This document shows, piece by piece, positions 2,831 through 64,000 of a stretch of 64,000 nt of DNA. This stretch comes from an uncultured virus (IMG/VR IMGVR_UViG_3300032293_002036). Its lineage: Duplodnaviria; Heunggongvirae; Uroviricota; Caudoviricetes. Position 1 is the stretch's first letter. Every line of letters begins with the position of its first letter. The position numbers and the translations under genes are program-made. The stretch lies in the IMG/VR virus record IMGVR_UViG_3300032293_002036, one strand, 5' to 3'. Under the pieces are notes generated by a model. The model was not told the origin of the DNA. It worked only from the letters and a program-made list of their open reading frames with translations, and ran no database searches.

Positions 2831-2983
2831 TCAGGCCTCGTCCTCCCACTCTCCAATGCGCTCAATCAATGTGACATGGCTCATCTGGTAAAGCTCTTTT
2901 GCGATCAATACGGCGTGCGCCAAGTCTCTTGCGACAAAGGAAACTTTGCTGCTATCACGAAAAGAAACTGTGAAGGTGTCCAT
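2831..2983 (-). CDS. hypothetical 50-aa protein
   Basis: Read by hand: MDTFTVSFRDSSKVSFVARDLAHAVLIAKELYQMSHVTLIERIGEWEDEA; fills the gap between flanking ORFs. Confidence 0.55.
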   Translation of the reverse strand: MDTFTVSFRDSSKVSFVARDLAHAVLIAKELYQMSHVTLIERIGEWEDEA

Positions 2984-2997
2984 CACATTGCCTCTGA

Positions 2998-3456
2998 TCA
3001 TTGCTCTTCTCCTTGAAGGGCGGTTTTCACGTCGATGCCCCGTGCTTCCATTTCTTCGAGCACGTCCTGGCTCACAATCTCTTTCAGCATCTTCCTCCAG
3101 CTCTCGTCACCACGAAAGCTGCCTGTTTCCTGGATTGCACGAGTGCTGCTCACGAGAGTTGTAATGTCGGCAATAGTGACCATGGCTTCGGCAATGCTCC
3201 CATGCGCAAGATGCTGATCAAGAATCTCCTTGTGAACCTCCAGCCAGCTACCAACGCAGAACAGTGCCACTTGCTTCAGTGTTTCATCCCCGTGCTTTTC
3301 CGTAAGACTGCTCAGCAGATCGAGCATTTCATGGGGAACGCCAACGGTGGCCGGGTCGTGAATGAGAGGATCCACTTCATTTGCGATCAGCTCGCGCTCT
3401 TCATCTTTGGACGAAGAAGCTTTCTTCAGGAAGTCGCTGACGGTTGAAAATTCCAT
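2998..3456 (-). CDS. hypothetical protein
   Basis: 152-aa acidic helical ORF with upstream TTGACA. Confidence 0.65.
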   Translation of the reverse strand: MEFSTVSDFLKKASSSKDEERELIANEVDPLIHDPATVGVPHEMLDLLSSLTEKHGDETLKQVALFCVGSWLEVHKEILDQHLAHGSIAEAMVTIADITTLVSSTRAIQETGSFRGDESWRKMLKEIVSQDVLEEMEARGIDVKTALQGEEQ

Positions 3457-7805: not shown

Positions 7806-10800
7806 CTAAAACAGTTCCTCTTCTTCTTCGGCTCCTGCGAATTGCTTGAGCCACTCCTCGTCATTGCTAGCGGTTTCCATGGCGGGTTCCGAAATGGGCT
7901 CTGGAGTGAAATCAAGATTGGGCTCTTTGTAATCCCAGGAGTGATACACCCTTGCCTTTTCCCCATTGGGGCCATCTTGAAAGCTGCTGGTGATCAAACC
8001 TTGACGACGTGCCACTTCCAGCATCTTGCCGGTGGATGCCACATCAAAACTTCCGCACAGCGCTGATACTTGCTGCTTAGTGAAGCGCTCGTTCTTGCGC
8101 ATGTTGATGGTGTTCACCACTTGATCAAGCTCTTCGAGACTTCCGCCAATTGGCCCTGCATATCGCCAGCCGTAGTTCAAGGTATCACGCTGAAGCGAAT
8201 GCTTACCGGTGAGGCCACTCCTGCTCTTCAGCCATTCCAAGGTGAATTCATTGGGGTCGAAATTGCCTTCGGCTCTTGTCAGTTTCACCACCTCACTGAC
8301 GTTGTCCACAAAGCTCGTGGAGTCGCGCAGTCCACCGCCTTTGTTCAAGTGGTGAAGGATGACAATGGAACAGCGGTAGTTGTTGGCCAAGTCACGAAGG
8401 CCGTAGATGGAATCGCCGGCAGAGCTTTTTGCCAGGTCCACATTCATGCCAGCCAAGCAAGCGGTGAGACTGTCGATCACCACCAGAGAAGGACGTTCCT
8501 TTCTGATGTAAGCCTCAAGCTGCTGCATGTTGGCAAAGCGCCAGGTTTCCCAGAAGCTGATGTCACCCGGTTCCAAGCCAGCATCTTGGTAGCCGATCAC
8601 GGAAAGCTTTTCTGCGGTGTCGGTGAGAGGTTCGTCTGCGCTGATCAGCAGAGCCTTGCCCTTCATACACCTCCTGCCGCTCCAGGGAGTGCCCAGTGCC
8701 ACGTGGAGGGCCCAGTTGTAGAGCAGGGTGGTGTTATGAGTGACGATGAAGTCGTCGGTCACGTAAGTGTGCGATGGGTGATCAACCATGATGCACTGAG
8801 CATCATCGTCGCCAATGTACTCAACAGAGTCAATCAATCGAGACGGCGCATATTTTGTGCGCTCAATCTCCTTGGAAGCTTTGGATTGAATGCTGAAACT
8901 CTTGAAACCAGGAGGCATCGAGATAAACGCACGATAGCTAATGCGTCCCTGCTTTTTCTTTCCTTTATAGGTAAACCATGGCTGACGCTGGCTGCAAACG
9001 GCTTTGCCGCCAAGTGATTGTACTATCCCGACCACGGCATCTCTTAGTTCTATTGAGGAACTATCGAAGGTTGTTGACGTGCCATCAGTCGTACCATCTG
9101 TGTCCATTAAGCCATGAAGAAGATCAAGACGCTGCTGCACCGATCCATAGAGGTAACTTTCGGGCACAAATTTATCCCAAGAGCGACAACCAAATAGGCC
9201 TAGCTCCTTAAGCGATTCTCTGAGATTGCCTGGTGCCTTGCCGCAATTCACTCTGTATTCAACGCAGCCAGAATTATTTACCTTGGAAACCAAGCAATGA
9301 CCGAAGGGGAGCAAGGCGAGTACCTTGTTAGTGATTTCCCTGTCTGAAATGGTCAATGTAAATCCGTGCTCAGTGATGGATCCGTCGCCGAGAATAACTC
9401 CAAGCAAGTAAGGAGTGATGGGGAGATCCTGTTCTTTGAATTGAATAGGGCCGACCATGGGGATCGAGTGGTTCCGATCTTTACGTCCACGGGCCTTATG
9501 CAAGTGCAGCGTTTCACGAATCTGCCTAAGGGGGCGAACGCTCCAGTCTTTTTCATGATCTCGTTCGCTTTGTGTTTTAGTAAGCCACAGGTGTTCATCA
9601 CAGCAATGTGTCGTGGCGCCATCGCTCATCTGTACCTTGAAAATTGGCTTCTTGCCCTGTGGAAAAACACCAGTGACCTTGGTGACCGAACCATCACCAG
9701 CGATCACCTCATCGCCAACAGAGATGTCGCCCATAAGCTTCCAGCCGCTCGGGGTGAGCACTTTGGACCAAAGAGGTCCAGCCTTGCCGGTGCCGCCTGC
9801 TGCAGCCAGAAGCATGACGCTTCCCAAGGGCACAATGCCAGCAATCAGCCAGTCCCTGGTCTTGTCAGAGCTTGCAATGGTGAGGGCGTCAATGCTTTCG
9901 ATCTCCTCCTTGCCATACACCCGCATCTTGGCTTCTTCAACGATCTTCTCAACGTTCTGCTGAGACATCTTGATGCCATGCTCTTCCAACCAGTGGCCAG
10001 TCTCGTAGCTGATTCGAGCCTCGTTTGCATAGAGTCCGACAAAGCCTTCGATGACAGAGATGATCTCGTCGTACGACGGTTTGCCGTCTCGCCCCTTGTG
10101 ACGAGAAGGACCAATGGAGGAAAGCAAGTCGTCTTTTGTGGCGCCTTCTTCGATGTAGTCGCCAATGTCGTAGCCATTACCGGGAGGCAGATTGTCCCAT
10201 TCCCAACTGCGGGGGTCTGCATACAGCCACTGCGCACCAGGATTGTCGGTGGCCACTTCGGTCATGAAGGCAACGCCCTGCTGGTCCCTGTCAGGGCAGA
10301 GCACCACCGTTTGATTCTTGAACAGGTGGGAATAATCACCGTTCGTGCGGTAGTGCTTGCTTCCACCCAAGAAAGTCACCGAGGGAAGATCAATCGCCCA
10401 CATTGACTCGCAAGTGAGTTCACCTTCAACGATGAAGATTGGCAGTCCTGTTTCCTTGCTCTTTGCAACAGCTTCGTTATAACGATACGGAAGGATCTTC
10501 GCCTTTACTTCTCGAAGCTGGGCTTGGTGACCACCAGGAACATCCTCAATAGTGGGGAAGTCTTGCCAAATCTTCTTACTGCCACTTGTGTCGTCACGAT
10601 GGACGATCACCACTTCTGCGCCGCCGCGATCCTGGTAAGGGAAAACGTAGCGACCAGGCTCTCGCGCAGGTTTCTCCCACCTAGTCAAAGGGGCCAGAAC
10701 GTCGCGAATTTCGGCGCGGTGAGCAGGGGACGGATCGTGCCAGCAGTTGTATCCGCCTGTCCTTTTGTTCACGGTGAAATCGTTGCCGCCACACGCGGGG

Positions 10801-10886
10801 CATTGAAACTTTCCTGACTCACTGCTTGGCTCAAGAGACTCAAGGTGGTCCAGGATTGAGAATGACATGGGCATTGAGAACGGCAT
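7806..10886 (-). CDS. primase-helicase (Zn ribbon + TOPRIM + RepA/AAA_25 helicase), intein-containing
   Basis: CPACGG Zn ribbon, 'IFIVEGE', 'LCPDRDQQG' TOPRIM, Walker A AAGGTGK|T split by intein, Walker B 'LVVIDSL', 'IVILHHLNK'. Confidence 0.9.
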   Translation of the reverse strand: MPFSMPMSFSILDHLESLEPSSESGKFQCPACGGNDFTVNKRTGGYNCWHDPSPAHRAEIRDVLAPLTRWEKPAREPGRYVFPYQDRGGAEVVIVHRDDTSGSKKIWQDFPTIEDVPGGHQAQLREVKAKILPYRYNEAVAKSKETGLPIFIVEGELTCESMWAIDLPSVTFLGGSKHYRTNGDYSHLFKNQTVVLCPDRDQQGVAFMTEVATDNPGAQWLYADPRSWEWDNLPPGNGYDIGDYIEEGATKDDLLSSIGPSRHKGRDGKPSYDEIISVIEGFVGLYANEARISYETGHWLEEHGIKMSQQNVEKIVEEAKMRVYGKEEIESIDALTIASSDKTRDWLIAGIVPLGSVMLLAAAGGTGKAGPLWSKVLTPSGWKLMGDISVGDEVIAGDGSVTKVTGVFPQGKKPIFKVQMSDGATTHCCDEHLWLTKTQSERDHEKDWSVRPLRQIRETLHLHKARGRKDRNHSIPMVGPIQFKEQDLPITPYLLGVILGDGSITEHGFTLTISDREITNKVLALLPFGHCLVSKVNNSGCVEYRVNCGKAPGNLRESLKELGLFGCRSWDKFVPESYLYGSVQQRLDLLHGLMDTDGTTDGTSTTFDSSSIELRDAVVGIVQSLGGKAVCSQRQPWFTYKGKKKQGRISYRAFISMPPGFKSFSIQSKASKEIERTKYAPSRLIDSVEYIGDDDAQCIMVDHPSHTYVTDDFIVTHNTTLLYNWALHVALGTPWSGRRCMKGKALLISADEPLTDTAEKLSVIGYQDAGLEPGDISFWETWRFANMQQLEAYIRKERPSLVVIDSLTACLAGMNVDLAKSSAGDSIYGLRDLANNYRCSIVILHHLNKGGGLRDSTSFVDNVSEVVKLTRAEGNFDPNEFTLEWLKSRSGLTGKHSLQRDTLNYGWRYAGPIGGSLEELDQVVNTINMRKNERFTKQQVSALCGSFDVASTGKMLEVARRQGLITSSFQDGPNGEKARVYHSWDYKEPNLDFTPEPISEPAMETASNDEEWLKQFAGAEEEEELF
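8733..9782 (-). mobile_element. class 3 intein with LAGLIDADG endonuclease (350 aa)
   Basis: Starts Ala (AGPLWSKVLTPSGW), block B 'CCDEHLW', block F 'AQCIMV', ends 'IVTHN|T'; 'YLLGVILGDG' and 'LLHGLMDTDG' motifs. Confidence 0.92.
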
Positions 10887-17201: not shown

Positions 17202-17450
17202 ATGACCACTCCTGAAGCCGACATGCTCTACATGGATAAAGTGGCAAGGGACGTGCTGCCCACTATTCTCAATGTGTTCCGGCCTGCTGACGGCAGCATG
17301 CAAGCCTTGAAGAGCTACGCAGACGACTCTGCTGCGCTGTCATGGCTAGTGGCCATGGCAATGATCGAGAAGCAGACCGACGTGATGAACCTCTTTGAGC
17401 AAGAAGAGGAAGAAGACGAGCAAGTTGAAGAGGCACAAGCCGATGCTTGA
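17202..17450 (+). CDS. hypothetical protein
   Basis: ORF after TATGAT -10; acidic tail. Confidence 0.6.
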   Translation: MTTPEADMLYMDKVARDVLPTILNVFRPADGSMQALKSYADDSAALSWLVAMAMIEKQTDVMNLFEQEEEEDEQVEEAQADA

Positions 17451-19095
17451 GAAGACTGCCATGGATCCTCTCTTCCGAGTGGAGACGATTGCAGCCACTC
17501 CCAACCCGCAGCAGTGCGTCTACGCGGGAATGCACCAGGATTACGACGAAGGCTTTGTCATGGACAGTCGCGAGACTTGGCCAGACGAAACCAAGGCTGG
17601 TGAAATCTGCGTCAAGCGACTGCTGGCTGGTGAGCGGGGCCATTACGGCCCCTTGGAGCATGCTCAGATCGTGCTCAATGTGGGCTGGTTTCCCCACTCG
17701 GTGATGCAGCAGGCCCGCACCCACCGCGTTGGCTGCTGTCTTTCTTCGGACACCATTGTTTATTTTGGCCACGACTCTTTGAGCGGAGGTGAAGTCTATT
17801 ACGAGTCAACCATTGGTCATCTGTTTGATCTTTGGCACAACGGCAGGTCTCATCAAAGAACCGAAGCCGATGCTGCTTATATGCGCAGGCAGATTGGGTC
17901 CCGAAAACTCATGCACTTAAATGAGCAGACAGGACTTATTGAGACCACAAGTATCACCAATATCTACGGAAATGGCCCCAAAGAAATTTGGTGCATTCGC
18001 TTGGAGGACGGAAAGGAAATCAAGGCAACACTGAACCATCAAGTGTTTACGCCAAACGGCTGGACCACTTTTGGCGAGCTTAAGCCTGGTGATTCTGTCA
18101 TGACAGCAGCTTCACTCCCTCTCTGTTCGCAAAGTGAAATCACAGACGCGACAAACGATCAAGAGCTTGAGCAATGGAAAACTTGTGCCAATTTTCCTTG
18201 GTACGAGGTATCAACTTGTGGGCGGGTTCGCTCTTGGGCTCCACGCAAGCACAGAGGAAAACAAGTTTATCCCATGCATCCTCGCCTTAAAAAAGTGAGC
18301 AAAGGCACTTACTCCTATGTGTCTTTGGCCAGCGAAGAGGGCACTGGATCCAAGCGCGTAAACGTGCATACACTCGTGCTTGAAACCTTTGTCGGAACAA
18401 GGCCTCCCGATGGAGTCGCAAGACACCTCAATGGCGTAGCTCATGACAATAGGCTCTCAAACTTGAGCTGGGGAACCCAAGCAGAGAACGCGAGTGATAG
18501 GTCTCTTCATGGCGTTACGCGCAGAAAGAAAGGCATCGCCGTCAAGATTGCCTCAATTTCTTACGTAGGCACTGAGGAAACGTATGACCTCGCGGTTGAA
18601 GGACCGTATCACAACTTCATTGCAAACGGCATTGTCGTTCATAACTCTTTTGACGTGCAGTCAATGCGTTACACGGGTGATCGCATTTGCAGGGCTGCAC
18701 GAGGAGAGCTGCATCTTGAAGACGTATTTTACCTTCGTCCGGTTGGATACTACTCTGACCGCAAAGGCAAGAAGTATCACTACAGTGAGCATCAACGAAA
18801 CAAGGACCTGTGCCTTTGTCGTCGGGCTGCACTTCGCTACGAGGAGCTGATCTTGAGCGGCTTTGCCGAGGAGCATGCTCGCGGCATTCTTCCTTTCGAC
18901 TATCGCCAGCATTTTGTGGTGAGCTTCTCTCTCCGTGCCTTTTTGCACTTCCTTGACCTTCGAGCCAAGCTTGATGCGCAGAAGGAAATCCGAGACTTGT
19001 GCGAGCTGATGTGGCCCCACCTTCAACAGTGGACTCCTGAGTTTGCCGAGTGGTACGAAAAAACTCGCCTTCACAAGGCGAGGCTTGCTCCTTAA
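17443..19095 (+). CDS. thyX: flavin-dependent thymidylate synthase, intein-containing
   Basis: 'GHYGPLEH', 'QQARTHRVGC|SFDVQSMRY', 'EEHARGILP', 'HFLDLRAKLDAQKEIR'. Confidence 0.93.
   Translation: MLEKTAMDPLFRVETIAATPNPQQCVYAGMHQDYDEGFVMDSRETWPDETKAGEICVKRLLAGERGHYGPLEHAQIVLNVGWFPHSVMQQARTHRVGCCLSSDTIVYFGHDSLSGGEVYYESTIGHLFDLWHNGRSHQRTEADAAYMRRQIGSRKLMHLNEQTGLIETTSITNIYGNGPKEIWCIRLEDGKEIKATLNHQVFTPNGWTTFGELKPGDSVMTAASLPLCSQSEITDATNDQELEQWKTCANFPWYEVSTCGRVRSWAPRKHRGKQVYPMHPRLKKVSKGTYSYVSLASEEGTGSKRVNVHTLVLETFVGTRPPDGVARHLNGVAHDNRLSNLSWGTQAENASDRSLHGVTRRKKGIAVKIASISYVGTEETYDLAVEGPYHNFIANGIVVHNSFDVQSMRYTGDRICRAARGELHLEDVFYLRPVGYYSDRKGKKYHYSEHQRNKDLCLCRRAALRYEELILSGFAEEHARGILPFDYRQHFVVSFSLRAFLHFLDLRAKLDAQKEIRDLCELMWPHLQQWTPEFAEWYEKTRLHKARLAP
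17737..18645 (+). mobile_element. intein with NUMOD4-HNH endonuclease (303 aa)
   Basis: CLSSDT start, block B 'IKATLNHQVFT', block F 'TYDLAV', ends 'IVVHN|S'; internal 'EQWKT...YEVSTCGRVRS' and 'VHTLVLETF...RHLNGVAHDNRLSNLSWGTQAEN'. Confidence 0.92.
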
Positions 19096-19106
19096 TCCTT
19101 TCAACC

Positions 19107-19796
19107 ATGCAAGAAAAATCTCGCCTCATTCTCTTCAATGGTCCGCGCCATTCCGGCAAGGACGAAGCAGCCAACTACTGCGCAAAAGAGTTTGGTGCCA
19201 CCCGGTTCAAGATGAGTGGTCCCATCAAGGCCGCTGTCAAGGCACTGTTTGCCCTGACGGACGAAGACGTGGCCCTGCTTGAAACAATCAAAACCGAGCC
19301 CTCCCCATTGCTCTTCGGCCTCAGCTACGTTCAAGCTCAAATTTCAATCTCTGAAGAGTGGGCTAAGAAGGTGTGGGGCAAAGACGTTTTCGGACGCATG
19401 GCGTCTGGGGCAGTGCAACGATGGGAAAGGTATGCAGGCAAGGGCAATCTTTACGTTTGCAGCGATTCTGGCTTCAGCGAAGAGGCGGCATCTTTGGTTT
19501 ACGATGTGATTTCGCCAGAGAACACTCTTCTGGTCCAACTTACCCGCCCCGGCAAATCGTTTGAAGGGGACAGTCGTAGTTACATTTACCTGGAGGGGGT
19601 TAAAACTGTCGTCATTGCCAATGATGCAGATCTTGATCTATACCATCAAACACTTGAAAGAGTGATTGGAGAATGGCTTGGCGTTAGACCGCGAGAAACG
19701 GTTCTCGATGAGCCAATGGAATGCACGGACGGTTTTTGTCCTATGCCAGGAGTGAGACTGGCTCCCTCGGGCGACTTCTTCCCACCGGCTAACTAA
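19107..19796 (+). CDS. deoxynucleoside monophosphate kinase
   Basis: P-loop 'NGPRHSGKD', 'MSGPIK', 'VCSDSGFSEE'. Confidence 0.8.
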   Translation: MQEKSRLILFNGPRHSGKDEAANYCAKEFGATRFKMSGPIKAAVKALFALTDEDVALLETIKTEPSPLLFGLSYVQAQISISEEWAKKVWGKDVFGRMASGAVQRWERYAGKGNLYVCSDSGFSEEAASLVYDVISPENTLLVQLTRPGKSFEGDSRSYIYLEGVKTVVIANDADLDLYHQTLERVIGEWLGVRPRETVLDEPMECTDGFCPMPGVRLAPSGDFFPPAN

Positions 19797-20284
19797 CCAA
19801 CCAGTTGCAATTGCATAGAAGGCGGCCACGTAAAGGCCGCCTTTTCTTTTGCGCTTTCATGGATGGGCAGCACTCGCTGCGTCTCTTCCATCCATTGCTC
19901 CCAGCTCGAAATGGAAGTGTGAGCGCTCACGAAACTGTGAGAATGCACCCAAGCAAGAAGAATATCCTCGCGCTTTTGCGTCCAAAACTCCTGAGGGCGC
20001 CACCATTCAAACAGCGGAAGGCTTCCCTTGTCCGCATTACAGGAAAGACAGGAGGGAATGTTGTTCCACTTAGCAAAGTGAGGGCCCCCTTTGCTCTTGG
20101 GCACAATGTGATCAATGGTTAGCTTTTCGTTCCAAACGCCACAGTAGGCACAGGCGCAATGGCCGAAAGGTCCTCTTGCGGAGAAGTCTTCAAAAATGCT
20201 TCTGCGATAGCGTCGCTTGGCGTCGCCAGGGCGTAATTCGGTGAGTGAATGGAGAAGATCATCTGGTCCATTTCTCATTCCCAT
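19793..20284 (-). CDS. HNH endonuclease (McrA-like, Zn-binding)
   Basis: 'CAYCG...LTIDHIVPKSKGG...N...CLSCNADKG'. Confidence 0.85.
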   Translation of the reverse strand: MGMRNGPDDLLHSLTELRPGDAKRRYRRSIFEDFSARGPFGHCACAYCGVWNEKLTIDHIVPKSKGGPHFAKWNNIPSCLSCNADKGSLPLFEWWRPQEFWTQKREDILLAWVHSHSFVSAHTSISSWEQWMEETQRVLPIHESAKEKAAFTWPPSMQLQLVG

Positions 20285-51428: not shown

Positions 51429-51476
51429 TAAACTCAGAGGCACATGCTAGACTTTAGACATTCTAGCAGCAGGATC

Positions 51477-52004
51477 ATGCACGAAATCGAAAGCTGGCGC
51501 CCTATTGATGAAACACAGGGCCATTATGAAATTAGCGACAGAGGGCGAGTGTGCAGGATCAAAGGGGGCAGACGTGTTTTGCTCAAAGTTAGTTTTTCTG
51601 GTCCTTATGCCAAGATTGGCCTCTATCCACCTGGCGTCACTGGACTGACCCGTCAAATACATAGACTTGTTTGTGAAGCCTTTCATGGACGCCCTCAAGA
51701 CTTTCAAGTCGTTCGCCATTTGAACGGTGATAGATATGATAATCGGGCTGTAAACTTAGCCTGGGGAACTCCAGAGGAGAACTCTCAAGATGCAATTTTG
51801 CACGGAACACATCGCGGTTCAAACAATGGAAGGAGCAAGTTAACGGAAGACCAAGTTTCCGCAATTAAAAACATTTTAAGTGCCAACCCAGAACTATCTC
51901 GCAACATGCTCGCTAAGGCACTTGCTGTCACACGGACTACTATTGGTCACATTGAAAAAGGACGACAATGGAAGCACGTAGAAGAATGCAACATTGATGA
52001 TTAG
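51477..52004 (+). CDS. NUMOD4-HNH homing endonuclease
   Basis: 'ESWRPI....YEISDRGRV', 'IHRLVCEAFHG...RHLNGDRYDNRAVNLAWGTPEEN'. Confidence 0.88.
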   Translation: MHEIESWRPIDETQGHYEISDRGRVCRIKGGRRVLLKVSFSGPYAKIGLYPPGVTGLTRQIHRLVCEAFHGRPQDFQVVRHLNGDRYDNRAVNLAWGTPEENSQDAILHGTHRGSNNGRSKLTEDQVSAIKNILSANPELSRNMLAKALAVTRTTIGHIEKGRQWKHVEECNIDD

Positions 52005-55269: not shown

Positions 55270-55788
55270 CTAGTCCACGAAATCAAAACGGTAAAAGCTT
55301 TTGTCGTCACATTGATCTACGGCGTTTTTCACTGCACTAGCAGCTTCTTCCTTTGTGGCAAAGCATCCCAAGTATTTTCTCTTGTAGTTTGCCTCCCAAG
55401 GCTTGGTCTTGAGACGTCTAGGCCTGAAACAAACACCTGTAACGCCGCTTTTATTGTTTGAAGAAATTTTTGAATTAAGCTTGTTCTGCCCTGTATTACA
55501 CAGTCGAAGGTTTGCAGGGCGATTGTCACCGGGGCAACCGTTGATGTGGTCAATCAGAAAATTCCCGGGGTCTTCACCATGAATCAATGCCCAAACAATA
55601 CGGTGCGCCCTATAGGGCCTTTTGTTGAGCTTGACTTTGATGTACCCCTCAGCATCTTTTCCTGTGATTTCTTTGCCAACAACGACGCACCTTGCCTGTT
55701 TTTTCTTCCAGTAGAGACGACCTTCGTCGTCTACCGTAAAAATTTCGCGCAGTTGCTCTAGCGGCGGGAGGGGTTTAGACTTTGCCAT
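55270..55788 (-). CDS. HNH endonuclease with AP2-like C-terminus
   Basis: 'AHRIVWAL.HG.DP....IDHING...DNR..NLR', 'NKSGVTGV', 'YLGCFATKEEAA'. Confidence 0.88.
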   Translation of the reverse strand: MAKSKPLPPLEQLREIFTVDDEGRLYWKKKQARCVVVGKEITGKDAEGYIKVKLNKRPYRAHRIVWALIHGEDPGNFLIDHINGCPGDNRPANLRLCNTGQNKLNSKISSNNKSGVTGVCFRPRRLKTKPWEANYKRKYLGCFATKEEAASAVKNAVDQCDDKSFYRFDFVD

Positions 55789-61588: not shown

Positions 61589-61766
61589 GAATCCAATCCT
61601 TTAGCTCTGCCACATATTGTCGCAGCATTTGAGCCTTTTGAAGGTGCCAAGGGTCGCGATGGGAGAGGAATAGTTCGGTGTGCCCGTCAATAGCCTTGAG
61701 GAGATTGTGAATGGGCGCGTTCCAGCGTGATCGGACAACGGTGTCAAACGTCCTGCGATCGTTCAC
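61521..61766 (-). CDS. hypothetical protein
   Basis: 'WNAPIHNLLKAID.H....WH..KA..LR.YV.ELK.WI'. Confidence 0.6.
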   Translation of the reverse strand: MNDRRTFDTVVRSRWNAPIHNLLKAIDGHTELFLSHRDPWHLQKAQMLRQYVAELKDWIHAEEAKCLADVGTGDGPKGRQE

Positions 61767-62283
61767 GGTCCTTGAAGAAGTCTTTGATGCACTCTAAAGG
61801 CACAGGACTAAAGTCATGCTGCTCTACGCAGCAGTTGAAATACTTCTGATCTGGCTGGCCGTTGGCGTCCTTCACTTCAAAGCAGTGCAAGTGGCCATGT
61901 GCATTGCCAGCGTACCTCCCAGACAAACTGTCAGGATGCACGGGAATATGAGTGAAGATCACGCCATCTCGATAGAAGGCGCCACGAATGTCCACAAAGT
62001 GATTCGCATAGTCCTGAAGCTTGTAAATGTCATGGTTGCCTTTAATCAGCACCTTGCTTCCATTGAAGCGATCTAAGAGGCTGAGCCCCGAGCGTGGAAT
62101 GGCCACGTCGCCCAAGATGTAAAGCCGATCCTTTGGACTAACCACCTTGTTGAACCTCTCGATCATCGTCTCATGCATCTCCTCAATGGAAGAGAAAGGA
62201 CGCATGTGCGTGCCATCGGGGTTGACAAAAGAAAGCATCTTGGAGTGGCCAAGATGCAAGTCCGAGGTGACAAAAGCGGCCAA
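61744..62283 (-). CDS. calcineurin-like metallophosphoesterase
   Basis: 'SDLHLGH', 'LGDV', 'GNHD', 'THIP', 'HGHLH'. Confidence 0.9.
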   Translation of the reverse strand: MAAFVTSDLHLGHSKMLSFVNPDGTHMRPFSSIEEMHETMIERFNKVVSPKDRLYILGDVAIPRSGLSLLDRFNGSKVLIKGNHDIYKLQDYANHFVDIRGAFYRDGVIFTHIPVHPDSLSGRYAGNAHGHLHCFEVKDANGQPDQKYFNCCVEQHDFSPVPLECIKDFFKDRERSQDV

Positions 62284-62316
62284 CGGAACGAAAGCGGGGT
62301 TTTTATTGTATCAGAA

Positions 62317-62410
62317 GGGGAGAGGACGGAGTCGAACCGTCGTGACCCAGCGAGGGAATCGAACCCAGCACAACAGATACATCCATTGTCGCCACCAAGA
62401 CGTCTCTCCC
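62317..62410 (-). ncRNA. tRNA-like element (non-canonical)
   Basis: Acceptor-like GGGAGAG/CTCTCCC, T-arm GACGG-TTCGACT-CCGTC, D-like GTC-TTGGTGGC-GAC, extra GGG-TTCGATT-CCC hairpin; no 7-nt anticodon loop and no CCA. Confidence 0.6.
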
Positions 62411-62976
62411 AGTGACCTCCAGGTTTGAGCATCGTTGAGAGGCTTAGGAGGTGTTGATAATGACCCATGCGTAACTGATGGGGGCAGTCAGAGGCCTGAG
62501 CGCTATCAGCCAGGAAGAGCACCCCGCACCGTCGGCGGACTCCAGAACTGGCAATGCCCGATGCCGAAGCAGTGCGGGTGCTGCAGGAGGCGATCAACCC
62601 TCCTGGCCTGCCAAGGCAGGTCTTAGAACGCAAGCCAGCAAGACTACTTCCCGACGACGCGGGTTCTTGAACGGGCTGCTCTCCATTGACAGAGCAATGG
62701 AGGGGATAAGGAAAGCACATGCATATTTAAGCTCAATTTAAAATTAAGCCGCTTGATACTTTCCCTCAATTCCAGTTGTTGCTGCGACACCGTCTACACA
62801 CTGGCAAACTCTAACGGTGAAAGCGAGTCCCATCCTCGCTGGGCTTGTCAATGAGGCTAACAAGCGCTGCCTCTCCGTGTTGCCGGAGATACGCAGACGA
62901 AGGAGCAAACGTACCGTGCCAAGCCCGAGGTGAAATACATCCACCCGTAGGCCGGTAGGGACGTGTTCCCGTCGCT
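62317..62976 (-). ncRNA. large ornate structured RNA or RNA cluster (~660 nt)
   Basis: No credible ORF, more than 12 hairpins plus long-range complementarities, extended -10 TGCTATAGT at 62981-62989. Confidence 0.7.
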
Positions 62977-63009
62977 TGAAACTATAGCACCCTTGGGCAG
63001 CGAGCGGTA

Positions 63010-63750
63010 CTAGCGGGAGTACGCAGGCAGCGAGGTGTTCGGGCTCTCAAAGAACGAGATGGCCCTGCTGCTGCGCGTGGCGGCCATTTCAGGGGCCTTG
63101 CCAGTGAGGAACAGCGATTGCGATTGCCGCAGCCAGAAGTCCCTGTTGAGCCACTGATTGGACGACTTGCCCAGATCATCAAACAGCCATGCAACAGTCG
63201 CGGCACGCAGTTTGTTCAGGCTTTGGCTTTCCTTCTCGCCCAGCTCCTTGCTCACCATGGCATTCACCACCGTATGCACCCGCTCGTCGCGGCTGATGTC
63301 CTGAGACACCGTGCGCATGCCCACGTCGCCTGTTTGACGGAAGAACGGCAGAGCCACGAAGAACACAGAACGCTCCATGATGCCAGCCTTCAGAATTGGG
63401 TGGGCAGGATGCTCGTTCCATGCCTTCAGAATGCTCATAACCTCCAGTTCTGCCTTTTCGCTCGTGCCGTGGGCGTCCACCACGAAATTGAGCGCAGCCA
63501 GATGGCGATCCTCGTCCTCCTGGTTGGAACGCAGGGTCTCGATGAGTCCAGGAGTGTTCGGCAGCTCTTGCTGCATGCCCTGCTCCAAAAGCTCTTTCAC
63601 GGGGATCTCCAGGTGCCGAAGAGCCAGCGCCTTGAGCAGTGTGCTCTCAGCGCCTTCAGTTACAGCGCCCTTTGCCACTGGCACCGGCTGCCAGGACCGC
63701 TTCTTCTCCAGAACATTCAGATAGGGGCTCGGGCCAGCAATGGTGCTCAT
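63010..63750 (-). CDS. nrdB: ribonucleotide reductase beta subunit, minimal ferritin-like
   Basis: 'DEDRH', 'MERSVFF', 'DISRDERVH' metal ligands; downstream of an alpha-type C-terminus. Confidence 0.8.
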   Translation of the reverse strand: MSTIAGPSPYLNVLEKKRSWQPVPVAKGAVTEGAESTLLKALALRHLEIPVKELLEQGMQQELPNTPGLIETLRSNQEDEDRHLAALNFVVDAHGTSEKAELEVMSILKAWNEHPAHPILKAGIMERSVFFVALPFFRQTGDVGMRTVSQDISRDERVHTVVNAMVSKELGEKESQSLNKLRAATVAWLFDDLGKSSNQWLNRDFWLRQSQSLFLTGKAPEMAATRSSRAISFFESPNTSLPAYSR

Positions 63751-63781
63751 TTTTCGCTCAGTGCAATGTAAAAAAAGAGAA

Positions 63782-63810
63782 GAAAACAAAGGGCCGAAAT
63801 TTCGGCCCAA
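63782..63810 (-). terminator. hairpin/terminator between RNR genes
   Basis: GGGCCGAA-AT-TTCGGCCC-TTTGTTTTC. Confidence 0.6.
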
Positions 63811-63835
63811 GAGGAAGAGACGATGGGAGGGAGTG

Positions 63836-64000
63836 TCATTCAGCGCAACTGGAGCAGAAGCCTGCATCCAGATTGCAAGACACACTTTCTTCTACTGGCT
63901 CGGCATCACCAAGCCCAAACATGCTTTGAAAATCGTCATCTAGAGCAGCGTAGGCATCATCCTTCCGTTGCATGTCAGGCATGACTTGCAGCGAGTAGTA
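63836..64000 (-). CDS. nrdA: ribonucleotide reductase alpha subunit, C-terminal 54 aa (partial)
   Basis: Read by hand: YYSLQVMPDMQRKDDAYAALDDDF...CNLDAGFCSSCAE*; YY pair and terminal CxxC. Confidence 0.8.
   Translation of the reverse strand, partial: YYSLQVMPDMQRKDDAYAALDDDFQSMFGLGDAEPVEESVSCNLDAGFCSSCAE

Follow-up and report, generated by a model that had tools for sequence, protein, structure and literature searches.

The end of a 64,000-nucleotide (nt) stretch of DNA from an uncultured tailed phage (IMG/VR record IMGVR_UViG_3300032293_002036; this whole stretch is called the window below) carries an orphan copy of the abiF RNA motif, followed after 4 nt by a tRNA-like element without an anticodon. 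In bacteria, the abiF motif is described as the RNA antitoxin of the HEPN RNase AbiF (PMC12373285). Viral contigs as a rule show this order of an abiF motif and then a tRNA, which bacterial AbiF loci lack. Judging from sequence comparison, and at a probability that we put at about 0.5, we propose that the minus-strand region from approximately 62976 to 62317 belongs to an S-CBS4-like cyanosiphovirus and forms a cluster of non-coding RNA, and that the phage abiF RNA would act as a decoy against host AbiF by antitoxin mimicry. A first-pass annotation of this DNA had predicted a non-coding, minus-strand RNA with a tRNA-like end, and this is borne out by the open reading frames (ORFs), by the strand on which wobble pairs are tolerated and by the tRNA mimic.

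The orphan abiF motif and its tRNA partner

The three features that carry this proposal are contiguous.

62415-62451, minus strand: abiF RNA motif (Rfam RF03085), 53.7 bits against a gathering score of 37, aligned over positions 1-37 of 37
62411-62414, minus strand: linker CACU, 4 nt, with U at position -1 of the tRNA-like element
62317-62410, minus strand: tRNA-like element, 94 nt, with acceptor stem, D-like hairpin and T arm and without an anticodon

The abiF motif has an E value of 3.6e-07 for the whole 64-kb window and is the only Rfam match there at gathering score. Its loop AAGCCUCUCAACGAUGCUCAAA is the family consensus, its stems covary across phage copies, and the ACCTCC/GGAGGT stem listed in the first-pass annotation is its outer stem. 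When the threshold was relaxed to E<=10, Rfam returned four matches, namely abiF, tRNA-Sec, Plastid-psbl-rps4 and gntR-DTE, the last three of which are sub-threshold and at chance level.

No abiF/Abi_2 (PF07751) gene lies just downstream of the motif, and Pfam searches found Abi_2 neither among the 147 window ORFs of at least 100 amino acids nor in any of five phage records, including three complete genomes of abiF-carrying cyanophages. For a wider comparison the exact 19-base core of the loop was used to collect a viral sample of at least 120 stretches and a sample of at least 123 stretches, mostly Bacteroidales, from a genome collection. Among the matches listed, the first downstream ORF of at least 100 amino acids encodes Abi_2 in 38 of 48 bacterial copies and in 0 of 42 viral copies; this crude rule finds no such ORF for 18 of 66 copies in bacteria and for 26 of 68 in viruses. 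A tblastn search of plasmids with an Abi_2 protein gave 444 records in many genera. When isolated phages were searched with blastn, the abiF piece (46-48 nt) was the only part of the region to be matched, in three cyanomyoviruses of Synechococcus CB0101 or KCZYC6. Among relatives of the region, 26 IMG/VR loci were gathered via the phosphoesterase gene (loci from all samples are given L numbers here), and in the 20 of these that were scanned for the motif it was found upstream of the phosphoesterase in L004, L005, L006 and L008. The copies in L150 and L243 were recognised by Rfam and not by a regular expression for motif variants.

In the tRNA-like element, all seven pairs of the acceptor stem GGGAGAG/CUCUCCC are formed (62410-62404 with 62324-62318), and this stem is stacked on a canonical 5-bp T arm with a UUCRANY loop (62341-62325, GACGG-UUCGACU-CCGUC). 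A 7-bp stem with a tetraloop occupies the position of the anticodon arm, the D-like hairpin is small, the discriminator base is C and no CCA is encoded. An additional T-loop hairpin at 62366-62352 makes two at the 3' end, as the first-pass annotation had noted. The element does not score as a tRNA: ARAGORN found 0 tRNAs or tmRNAs in the window, and the best match in the tRNA clan was tRNA-Sec at 20.5 bits against the 47 required. The same architecture with altered stems recurs in L127/L197. We infer from its structure that the element is of the RNase P substrate type.

Linkage between motif and tRNA was counted in the 104 distinct viral copies with room downstream, among the matches listed. 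ARAGORN placed a tRNA starting 2-8 nt after the motif in 54 copies, 34 of them tRNA-Arg(UCU), and a further 14 copies have a mimic, defined as an acceptor stem and T arm within 10 nt downstream, which gives a tRNA or mimic in 68 of 104. A normal tRNA stands 3-5 nt past the motif in the phages S-CREM1, S-SZBM1 and S-SRM01 and in L005 and L006. Among bacterial copies an ARAGORN tRNA lies within 10 nt in 1 of 116, a tRNA-Ile(GAU) as in L345, and the mimic rule is satisfied by 0 of 114 bacterial copies, by 10 of 307 random viral anchors and by 2 of 385 random bacterial anchors. Of the 54 viral copies, 38 have U just before the tRNA, at position -1, where it is the base that bacterial RNase P prefers. 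The tRNA partner of the window, like that of many siphovirus relatives, is without an anticodon; because the anticodon is lost and the parts that RNase P requires are kept, the partner appears to be a retained handle for processing or stabilisation.

Some loci depart from this arrangement. In the myovirus-type loci L048, L049, L052, L074, L112 and L114 the 5' half of a tRNA begins about 5 nt past the motif and ends after the anticodon stem; these halves are not called by ARAGORN and may belong to intron-containing tRNAs. In L034, L042 and L075 the motif and its CACU tail have no tRNA after them, and the first downstream ORF in L042 gives a weak match to phage integrase (E 3.7e-4); an attachment site may be the context here.

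Other modules of the cluster

Upstream of the motif, and once downstream of the tRNA mimic, the following features were identified.

62969-62990, minus strand: promoter-like block GTGCTATAGTTTCAAGCGACGG with an extended -10 box TGCTATAGT (62988-62980), occurring once in the window
62788-62976, minus strand: 5' domain, with a conserved two-hairpin module at 62867-62821
62712-62787, minus strand: AT-rich spacer, present in the window and L004 only
62584-62702, minus strand: four-hairpin element, conserved and covarying, made up of hairpins A, C and D and helix B
62702-62681, minus strand: hairpin A, loop CUCUGU
62679-62630, minus strand: helix B, from single-sequence folding of homologues
62620-62607, minus strand: hairpin C, with an invariant AAGNCC just before it
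62605-62584, minus strand: hairpin D, loop R-UUGAUC-R
62452-62583, minus strand: variable spacer with a long hairpin (62581-62519), missing in L008, L030, L037 and L127
62305-62313, minus strand: second box resembling an extended -10, TGATACAAT, before the phosphoesterase gene, a consensus match only

The four-hairpin element matches no Rfam family at E<=10. A covariance model (R1) built on hairpins C and D scores a single copy in the window at 70.4 bits and has 46 matches across 54 sources; the initial pattern had given many chance or protein-coding matches, and only copies in the AAGNCC context, confirmed with R1, were kept. In the C and D alignment, which was fitted to the model, 88.9% of cells are paired compared with 78.9% in shuffles (0 of 500 reaching it), 7 of 12 pairs have changes on both sides (4 of 500 shuffles), and double-change cells number 53 against 15.2 expected, with slid controls at no more than 10. 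The outer two pairs of hairpin D were excluded from this evidence because they are mis-registered in the alignment for variants of 6 bp (20 'other' cells each). Hairpin A was examined without an alignment, by anchoring on its loop: 19 sequences hold 12 distinct stems, 99% paired, where shuffles have a mean of 82.8% and a maximum of 92.7%. Single-sequence folds contain helix B in 12 of 13 homologues, and the minimum-energy fold of the window lacks it. Frequent U-G wobbles are consistent with the minus strand only. The stems CAGGAGG/CCTCCTG, CCTGCC/GGCAGG and CTCCATTG/CAATGGAG (62681-62702) of the first-pass annotation are conserved and covarying in relatives. That annotation had also raised the possibility of a new RNA family, which stands for the four-hairpin element; the abiF hairpin is the known family RF03085, which it had overlooked, and this removes the novelty of that piece and provides a functional lead instead.

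The hairpin D loop R-UUGAUC-R is invariant across all aligned homologues, and its end purines covary (G..G or A..A). Compared with L004, the nearest relative (96.6% identity over 1697 nt), hairpin D shows loop-end and wobble changes only: the loop-end purines 62598 and 62591 have changed jointly (both G>A), and 62586 C>U leaves a G-U pair. The UGAUCA/UGAUCG in this loop is self-complementary, and its GUUGA and AUCG are each complementary to part of the abiF loop UCAACGAU; the self-complementary UGAUC(A/G) could pair two precursors and thereby match the AbiF dimer. Hairpin D is separated from the abiF motif by 4 nt in L008, L030, L037 and L127 and by 128 nt in the window. An abiF motif lies downstream of 18 of 34 distinct C/D copies, which were not selected for abiF, and in L201 and L221 the C/D element is followed directly by a tRNA without the motif. 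Since it is found without the motif as well, the four-hairpin element is not an obligate part of abiF RNA. The modules other than the motif and its handle most likely serve as a scaffold or stabiliser of the proposed precursor, or would themselves be small RNAs freed from it.

The differences from L004 are unevenly distributed. There are none in the abiF motif, one in the tRNA mimic, where it falls in the tetraloop, and none in 62997-62788. The spacer at 62581-62468 has eight substitutions, three of which break the long hairpin 62581-62519, and five changes, namely 4 substitutions and 1 indel, fall in the AT-rich spacer (62787-62725); this divergence is comparable to that of synonymous sites. 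The AT-rich spacer is missing in L037 and L345, where the flanking modules abut, and the modules recur in other phages in other combinations and orders. The concentration of changes in the spacers indicates selection on the modules and none on the spacers, and selected modules with drifting spacers are evidence against a single ornate fold.

The promoter-like block, which bears out the extended -10 that the first-pass annotation had noted on the minus strand, is found (20-22 nt at 95-100% identity) in the same place, at the 5' edge of the clusters, in L005, L006, L149, L062, L194, L205 and L212. The RNA presumably starts near 62976, and the cluster is probably promoter-driven. A two-hexamer promoter scan of 62100-63200 returned 0 sites and did not call the block. 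In the same interval, two terminator-like sites were found against 1.1 expected, one of them within the phosphoesterase gene; the weak 5-bp call at 62958-62941 is the sole one between the -10 box and the tRNA mimic. A box equivalent to the second one, TGGTATAGT, follows the tRNA mimic in L127, L062, L205 and L008. Relatives have a common layout, with the nrdB-like gene first, then a conserved TGnTATAGT box, a series of hairpins, the abiF motif with its tRNA or mimic and, ahead of the phosphoesterase gene, a second -10-like box.

The 5' domain has no Rfam match at E<=10, and its 189 nt fold with z = -1.18. Its two-hairpin module (62867-62821; GCUUGU..ACAAGC and GCGAG-GAUGGGA-CUCGC) is 88-94% identical in L037/L153, L345 and L100, with a change from A-U to G-C in hairpin 2; the remainder of the domain is common to the window and L004 only. 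Every local stem listed in the first-pass annotation is present in the sequence. AGCGAG/CTCGCT and GCTTGT/ACAAGC recur as conserved stems in L037/L153, L345 and L100; CACCGT/ACGGTG and TCTCCG/CGGAGA are real but limited to the window and L004; and GCACCCGCAC/GTGCGGGGTGC (62519-62581) has three pairs broken, without compensation, in L004. Compared with 20 shuffles per strand, the 660 nt have only a modestly low folding energy (z -2.25 on the minus strand, where none of the 20 was as low, and z -2.53 on the plus strand), so hairpin density alone is weak evidence; conservation, covariation and the Rfam match are stronger evidence than folding energy.

Two observations concern the same modules in other loci. 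L345, a 2,217-bp contig in an Aquiluna metagenome-assembled genome bin, has the two-hairpin module, the four-hairpin element, the abiF motif and a tRNA-Ile; it probably represents a piece of phage DNA placed in an actinobacterial bin and is for that reason uninformative on the host. L037, L345, L200 and L254 have an extra conserved block, CUCAAGG..CUGGUUUCC..CCUUGAG..GGGAAGCCAG, upstream of the shared modules, which is absent from the window and whose two stems interleave in the manner of an H-type pseudoknot.

The proposed decoy and its alternatives

In Clostridioides difficile the RNA RCd22, which contains two abiF motifs, is described as binding AbiF and neutralising it in cis and in trans, and its activity is abolished by mutations that disrupt the stem and not by compensatory ones (PMC12373285). 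The same antitoxin role, with a structure from cryo-electron microscopy, is attributed to the RNA of Prevotellaceae AbiF (reviews PMC13064643, PMC12737573), and papers that cite the 2025 work on AbiF speak of an RNA-antitoxin system and a likely ancestor of Cas13. Under the decoy proposal, an early transcript would begin on the minus strand at the -10 box near 62980. Host RNase P would cleave it between 62411 and 62410, where the tRNA mimic begins, and this cut would free an abiF RNA with a defined 3' end and a CACU tail. The freed RNA could then occupy the host AbiF RNase like its cognate antitoxin, and when phage-induced shut-off of host transcription lets the host antitoxin decay, the toxin would be kept silent and abortive infection would not follow. 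The link to a host is that the three isolated phages bearing the motif infect Synechococcus CB0101 or KCZYC6.

Several observations weigh against this proposal. By the two rules used, 36 of the 104 viral copies have neither tRNA nor mimic; about 7 of the 36 are by eye intron-split or odd tRNAs, and several have terminator-like T runs as in bacterial loci. The window has a single copy of the motif, and both copies in RCd22 are described as important (PMC12373285). No cyanobacterium is among the at least 123 bacterial matches listed, and both the viral and the bacterial samples were drawn via the exact loop core. Finally, 16 of the 34 distinct C/D copies are without an abiF motif.

Rather unlikely, in our estimate, is a cis-acting leader of a tRNA operon, whose hairpins would serve transcription, antitermination or tRNA processing and would be unrelated to AbiF. 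The position of the motif 2-8 nt before a tRNA in those 54 viral copies speaks for such a leader, as does the C/D element standing right before tRNAs in L201 and L221. However, bacterial AbiF loci have this very loop, which is described as binding the toxin there (PMC12373285), and the arrangement is still kept in the window and many siphovirus relatives, where the tRNA has no anticodon loop; in the window there is thus no working tRNA to serve.

A single ornate RNA of about 660 nt, with the abiF-like hairpin and the tRNA-like end as domains, we regard as improbable. One conserved promoter-like box at the 5' edge, no internal terminator except the weak call at 62958-62941, the identity of the 5' 210 nt in L004 and the low minus-strand z are all in keeping with one long RNA, and GOLLD and ROOL are reported near tRNAs in phages (PMC5737381). 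The modules, however, occur separately and in other orders in relatives, the 128-nt and approximately 100-nt inserts are absent from most of them, the long hairpin 62581-62519 is broken in L004, the plus strand folds equally well and there is no conserved long-range pair. The kinship with GOLLD, ROOL or manA that had been suggested found no support when Rfam was run, with no match to these families at gathering score or at E<=10. The first-pass annotation had left the choice between a single large RNA and a processed RNA cluster, and of these the processed cluster fits best and the single ornate RNA is weak. The long-range pair 62672/62922, also from that annotation, was rejected, as the sequence between and around it is absent from other relatives.

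It is very improbable that the region is a decaying AbiF locus captured from a host, or a site acting at the level of DNA (an attachment site in a tRNA gene, or an origin), with no RNA function. The variable slot, filled by an endonuclease gene in S-CBS4, would suit a remnant or such a site, the duplicated T arms could be recombination scars, and the weak integrase match after the motif in L042 is also of this kind. Yet an invariant loop is kept in at least 120 viral stretches, the stems covary with U-G wobbles that fit one strand only, the modules are far more conserved than the spacers, and there is no integrase among the 147 window ORFs.

A protein-coding gene, either the 185-amino-acid minus-strand frame at 62163-62720 or short ORFs, can be dismissed almost entirely, since this frame, the sole long one in the region, overlaps the phosphoesterase gene out of frame, has no Pfam match, contains insertions of 54-128 nt by which relatives differ, and differs from L004 by 12 substitutions with no third-position bias (4/2/6 at codon positions 1/2/3), compared with 36 substitutions at 3/2/31 in the nrdB-like gene (4.9% divergence). 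The earlier description of the locus as free of ORFs thus holds, and 62284-63009 is without a credible gene.

Related systems, neighbouring genes and relatives

The window copy resembles the abiF RNAs of bacteria (RF03085; RCd22; AbiFr of Prevotellaceae) in its full-length match, loop and stem architecture. It differs in that neither the window nor the phage records have an Abi_2 gene, in that the phage copy is followed by a tRNA or mimic whereas the bacterial copy is followed by a terminator and the toxin gene, and in being a single copy that would lie inside a longer multi-hairpin transcript. The nearest functional parallel concerns phage PhiTE of Pectobacterium, whose pseudo-ToxI RNA is described as inhibiting ToxN of the ToxIN system (PMC3594212). 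There too a phage copy of a host type III antitoxin RNA is proposed to neutralise the toxin during infection (PMC3594212), but pseudo-ToxI consists of expanded tandem repeats processed by the toxin, and the window has one hairpin with a tRNA-type 3' signal: no ToxI-type repeat family of the motif was found in 62200-63100, where Rfam sees one abiF copy.

Species 1 and 2 RNAs of phage T4 are small stable RNAs from a phage tRNA cluster, and mascRNA of MALAT1 is a tRNA-like 3' handle. The window shares with the RNAs of phage tRNA clusters a structured RNA flush against a tRNA or tRNA-like element, whose end could be set by tRNA-processing enzymes, and in S-CREM1 the abiF motif lies in the same tRNA array as manA and wcaG; the difference is that the tRNA partner in the window has no anticodon loop and seems to be a handle only. 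GOLLD, ROOL and manA are likewise phage-borne and ORF-free with tRNA-like sequence nearby, but the window cluster has no match to their models at E<=10 and no conserved global architecture.

An abiF match in one cyanophage has already been published, with no function given in the accessible parts of the S-CREM1 paper (PMC9964418) and of a 2025 review (PMC12197685), and those parts do not mention the linkage to tRNA. In the literature that we searched, phage abiF RNAs are not described as orphan antitoxins or as fused to tRNAs or mimics, and the four-hairpin element does not appear; Zilberzwige-Tal et al. (2025) and the supplementary material of Weinberg et al. (2017) may bear on these points.

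A second orphan RNA was found in L232, a complete phage genome of 60,346 bp with terminal repeats. A DUF3800-VIII RNA (RF03075) at 165-230 on the plus strand (62.4 bits against 40.2) lies just 5' of a C/D element at 283-330, and the genome has no gene for a DUF3800 protein. Eleven unrelated RNA motifs are reported to accompany bacterial DUF3800 genes (PMC5737381), and DUF3800 is described as RNase H-like and tied to mobile elements and defence (PMC13594972). The orphan RNA in L232 is therefore a hint that the decoy principle extends beyond AbiF, which it supports and does not prove. Tentatively, cyanophages and a broader range of uncultured aquatic phages might possess 'decoy RNA operons', promoter-driven arrays that combine new scaffold hairpins with orphan copies of the RNAs belonging to host RNA-protein defence modules and from which tRNA-processing enzymes would release these RNAs at tRNA or degenerate tRNA handles.

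If the decoy proposal is true, RNA antitoxin mimicry, so far represented by pseudo-ToxI, would gain a second case, natural and widespread, and the first in which the mimic is ready-made in wild phages, not in laboratory escape mutants. It would predict that estuarine and freshwater Synechococcus carry active AbiF defence, and would mean that phage small RNAs can be matured simply, by RNase P at a tRNA handle that outlives its decoding function. The set of RNAs in phage tRNA clusters gains at least one uncatalogued covarying motif.

The genes on either side of the cluster are as follows.

61744-62283, minus strand: calcineurin-like phosphoesterase, the downstream gene (Pfam Metallophos, E 1.8e-4)
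63010-63885, minus strand: nrdB-like ORF, the upstream gene, named as in the first-pass annotation, with two E-x-x-H motifs in its translation

The nrdB-like ORF has no Pfam match, and its start is probably the ATG at 63750. By Pfam the window is tailed-phage DNA, with lambda-type tail genes, genes for a portal and a major capsid protein, inteins and homing endonucleases. The Synechococcus phage S-CBS4, a siphovirus that infects Synechococcus sp. CB0101, has a major capsid protein 85.8% identical to that of the window and a phosphohydrolase 55% identical to the window's phosphoesterase. In S-CBS4, the closest isolate, the slot between the nrdB-like and phosphoesterase genes holds an endonuclease gene and no RNA cluster, which shows that this slot is variable.

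Other RNAs were seen near the phosphoesterase in relatives. Glutamine-II riboswitch aptamers (RF01704, 35-43 bits) adjoin a tRNA-Leu downstream of the phosphoesterase gene, on the minus strand of the loci, in L005 (3884-3937), L006 (4105-4158) and L009/L010 (4014-4067); the window has none at gathering score. L013 carries a phage-borne permuted tmRNA at 2946-3395 on the plus strand (Rfam 134.8-137.5 bits; ARAGORN tag ANDNVYALAA), about 1 kb away from its phosphoesterase homologue. Elsewhere in the window, an intein carrying HNH/NUMOD domains splits the ThyX gene (17395-19095, plus strand), LAGLIDADG/Hom_end domains occur in an AAA_25 helicase-like gene (7806-10886, minus strand), and there are several free-standing HNH genes, including those at 51444-52004, 55270-55788 and 19793-20284.

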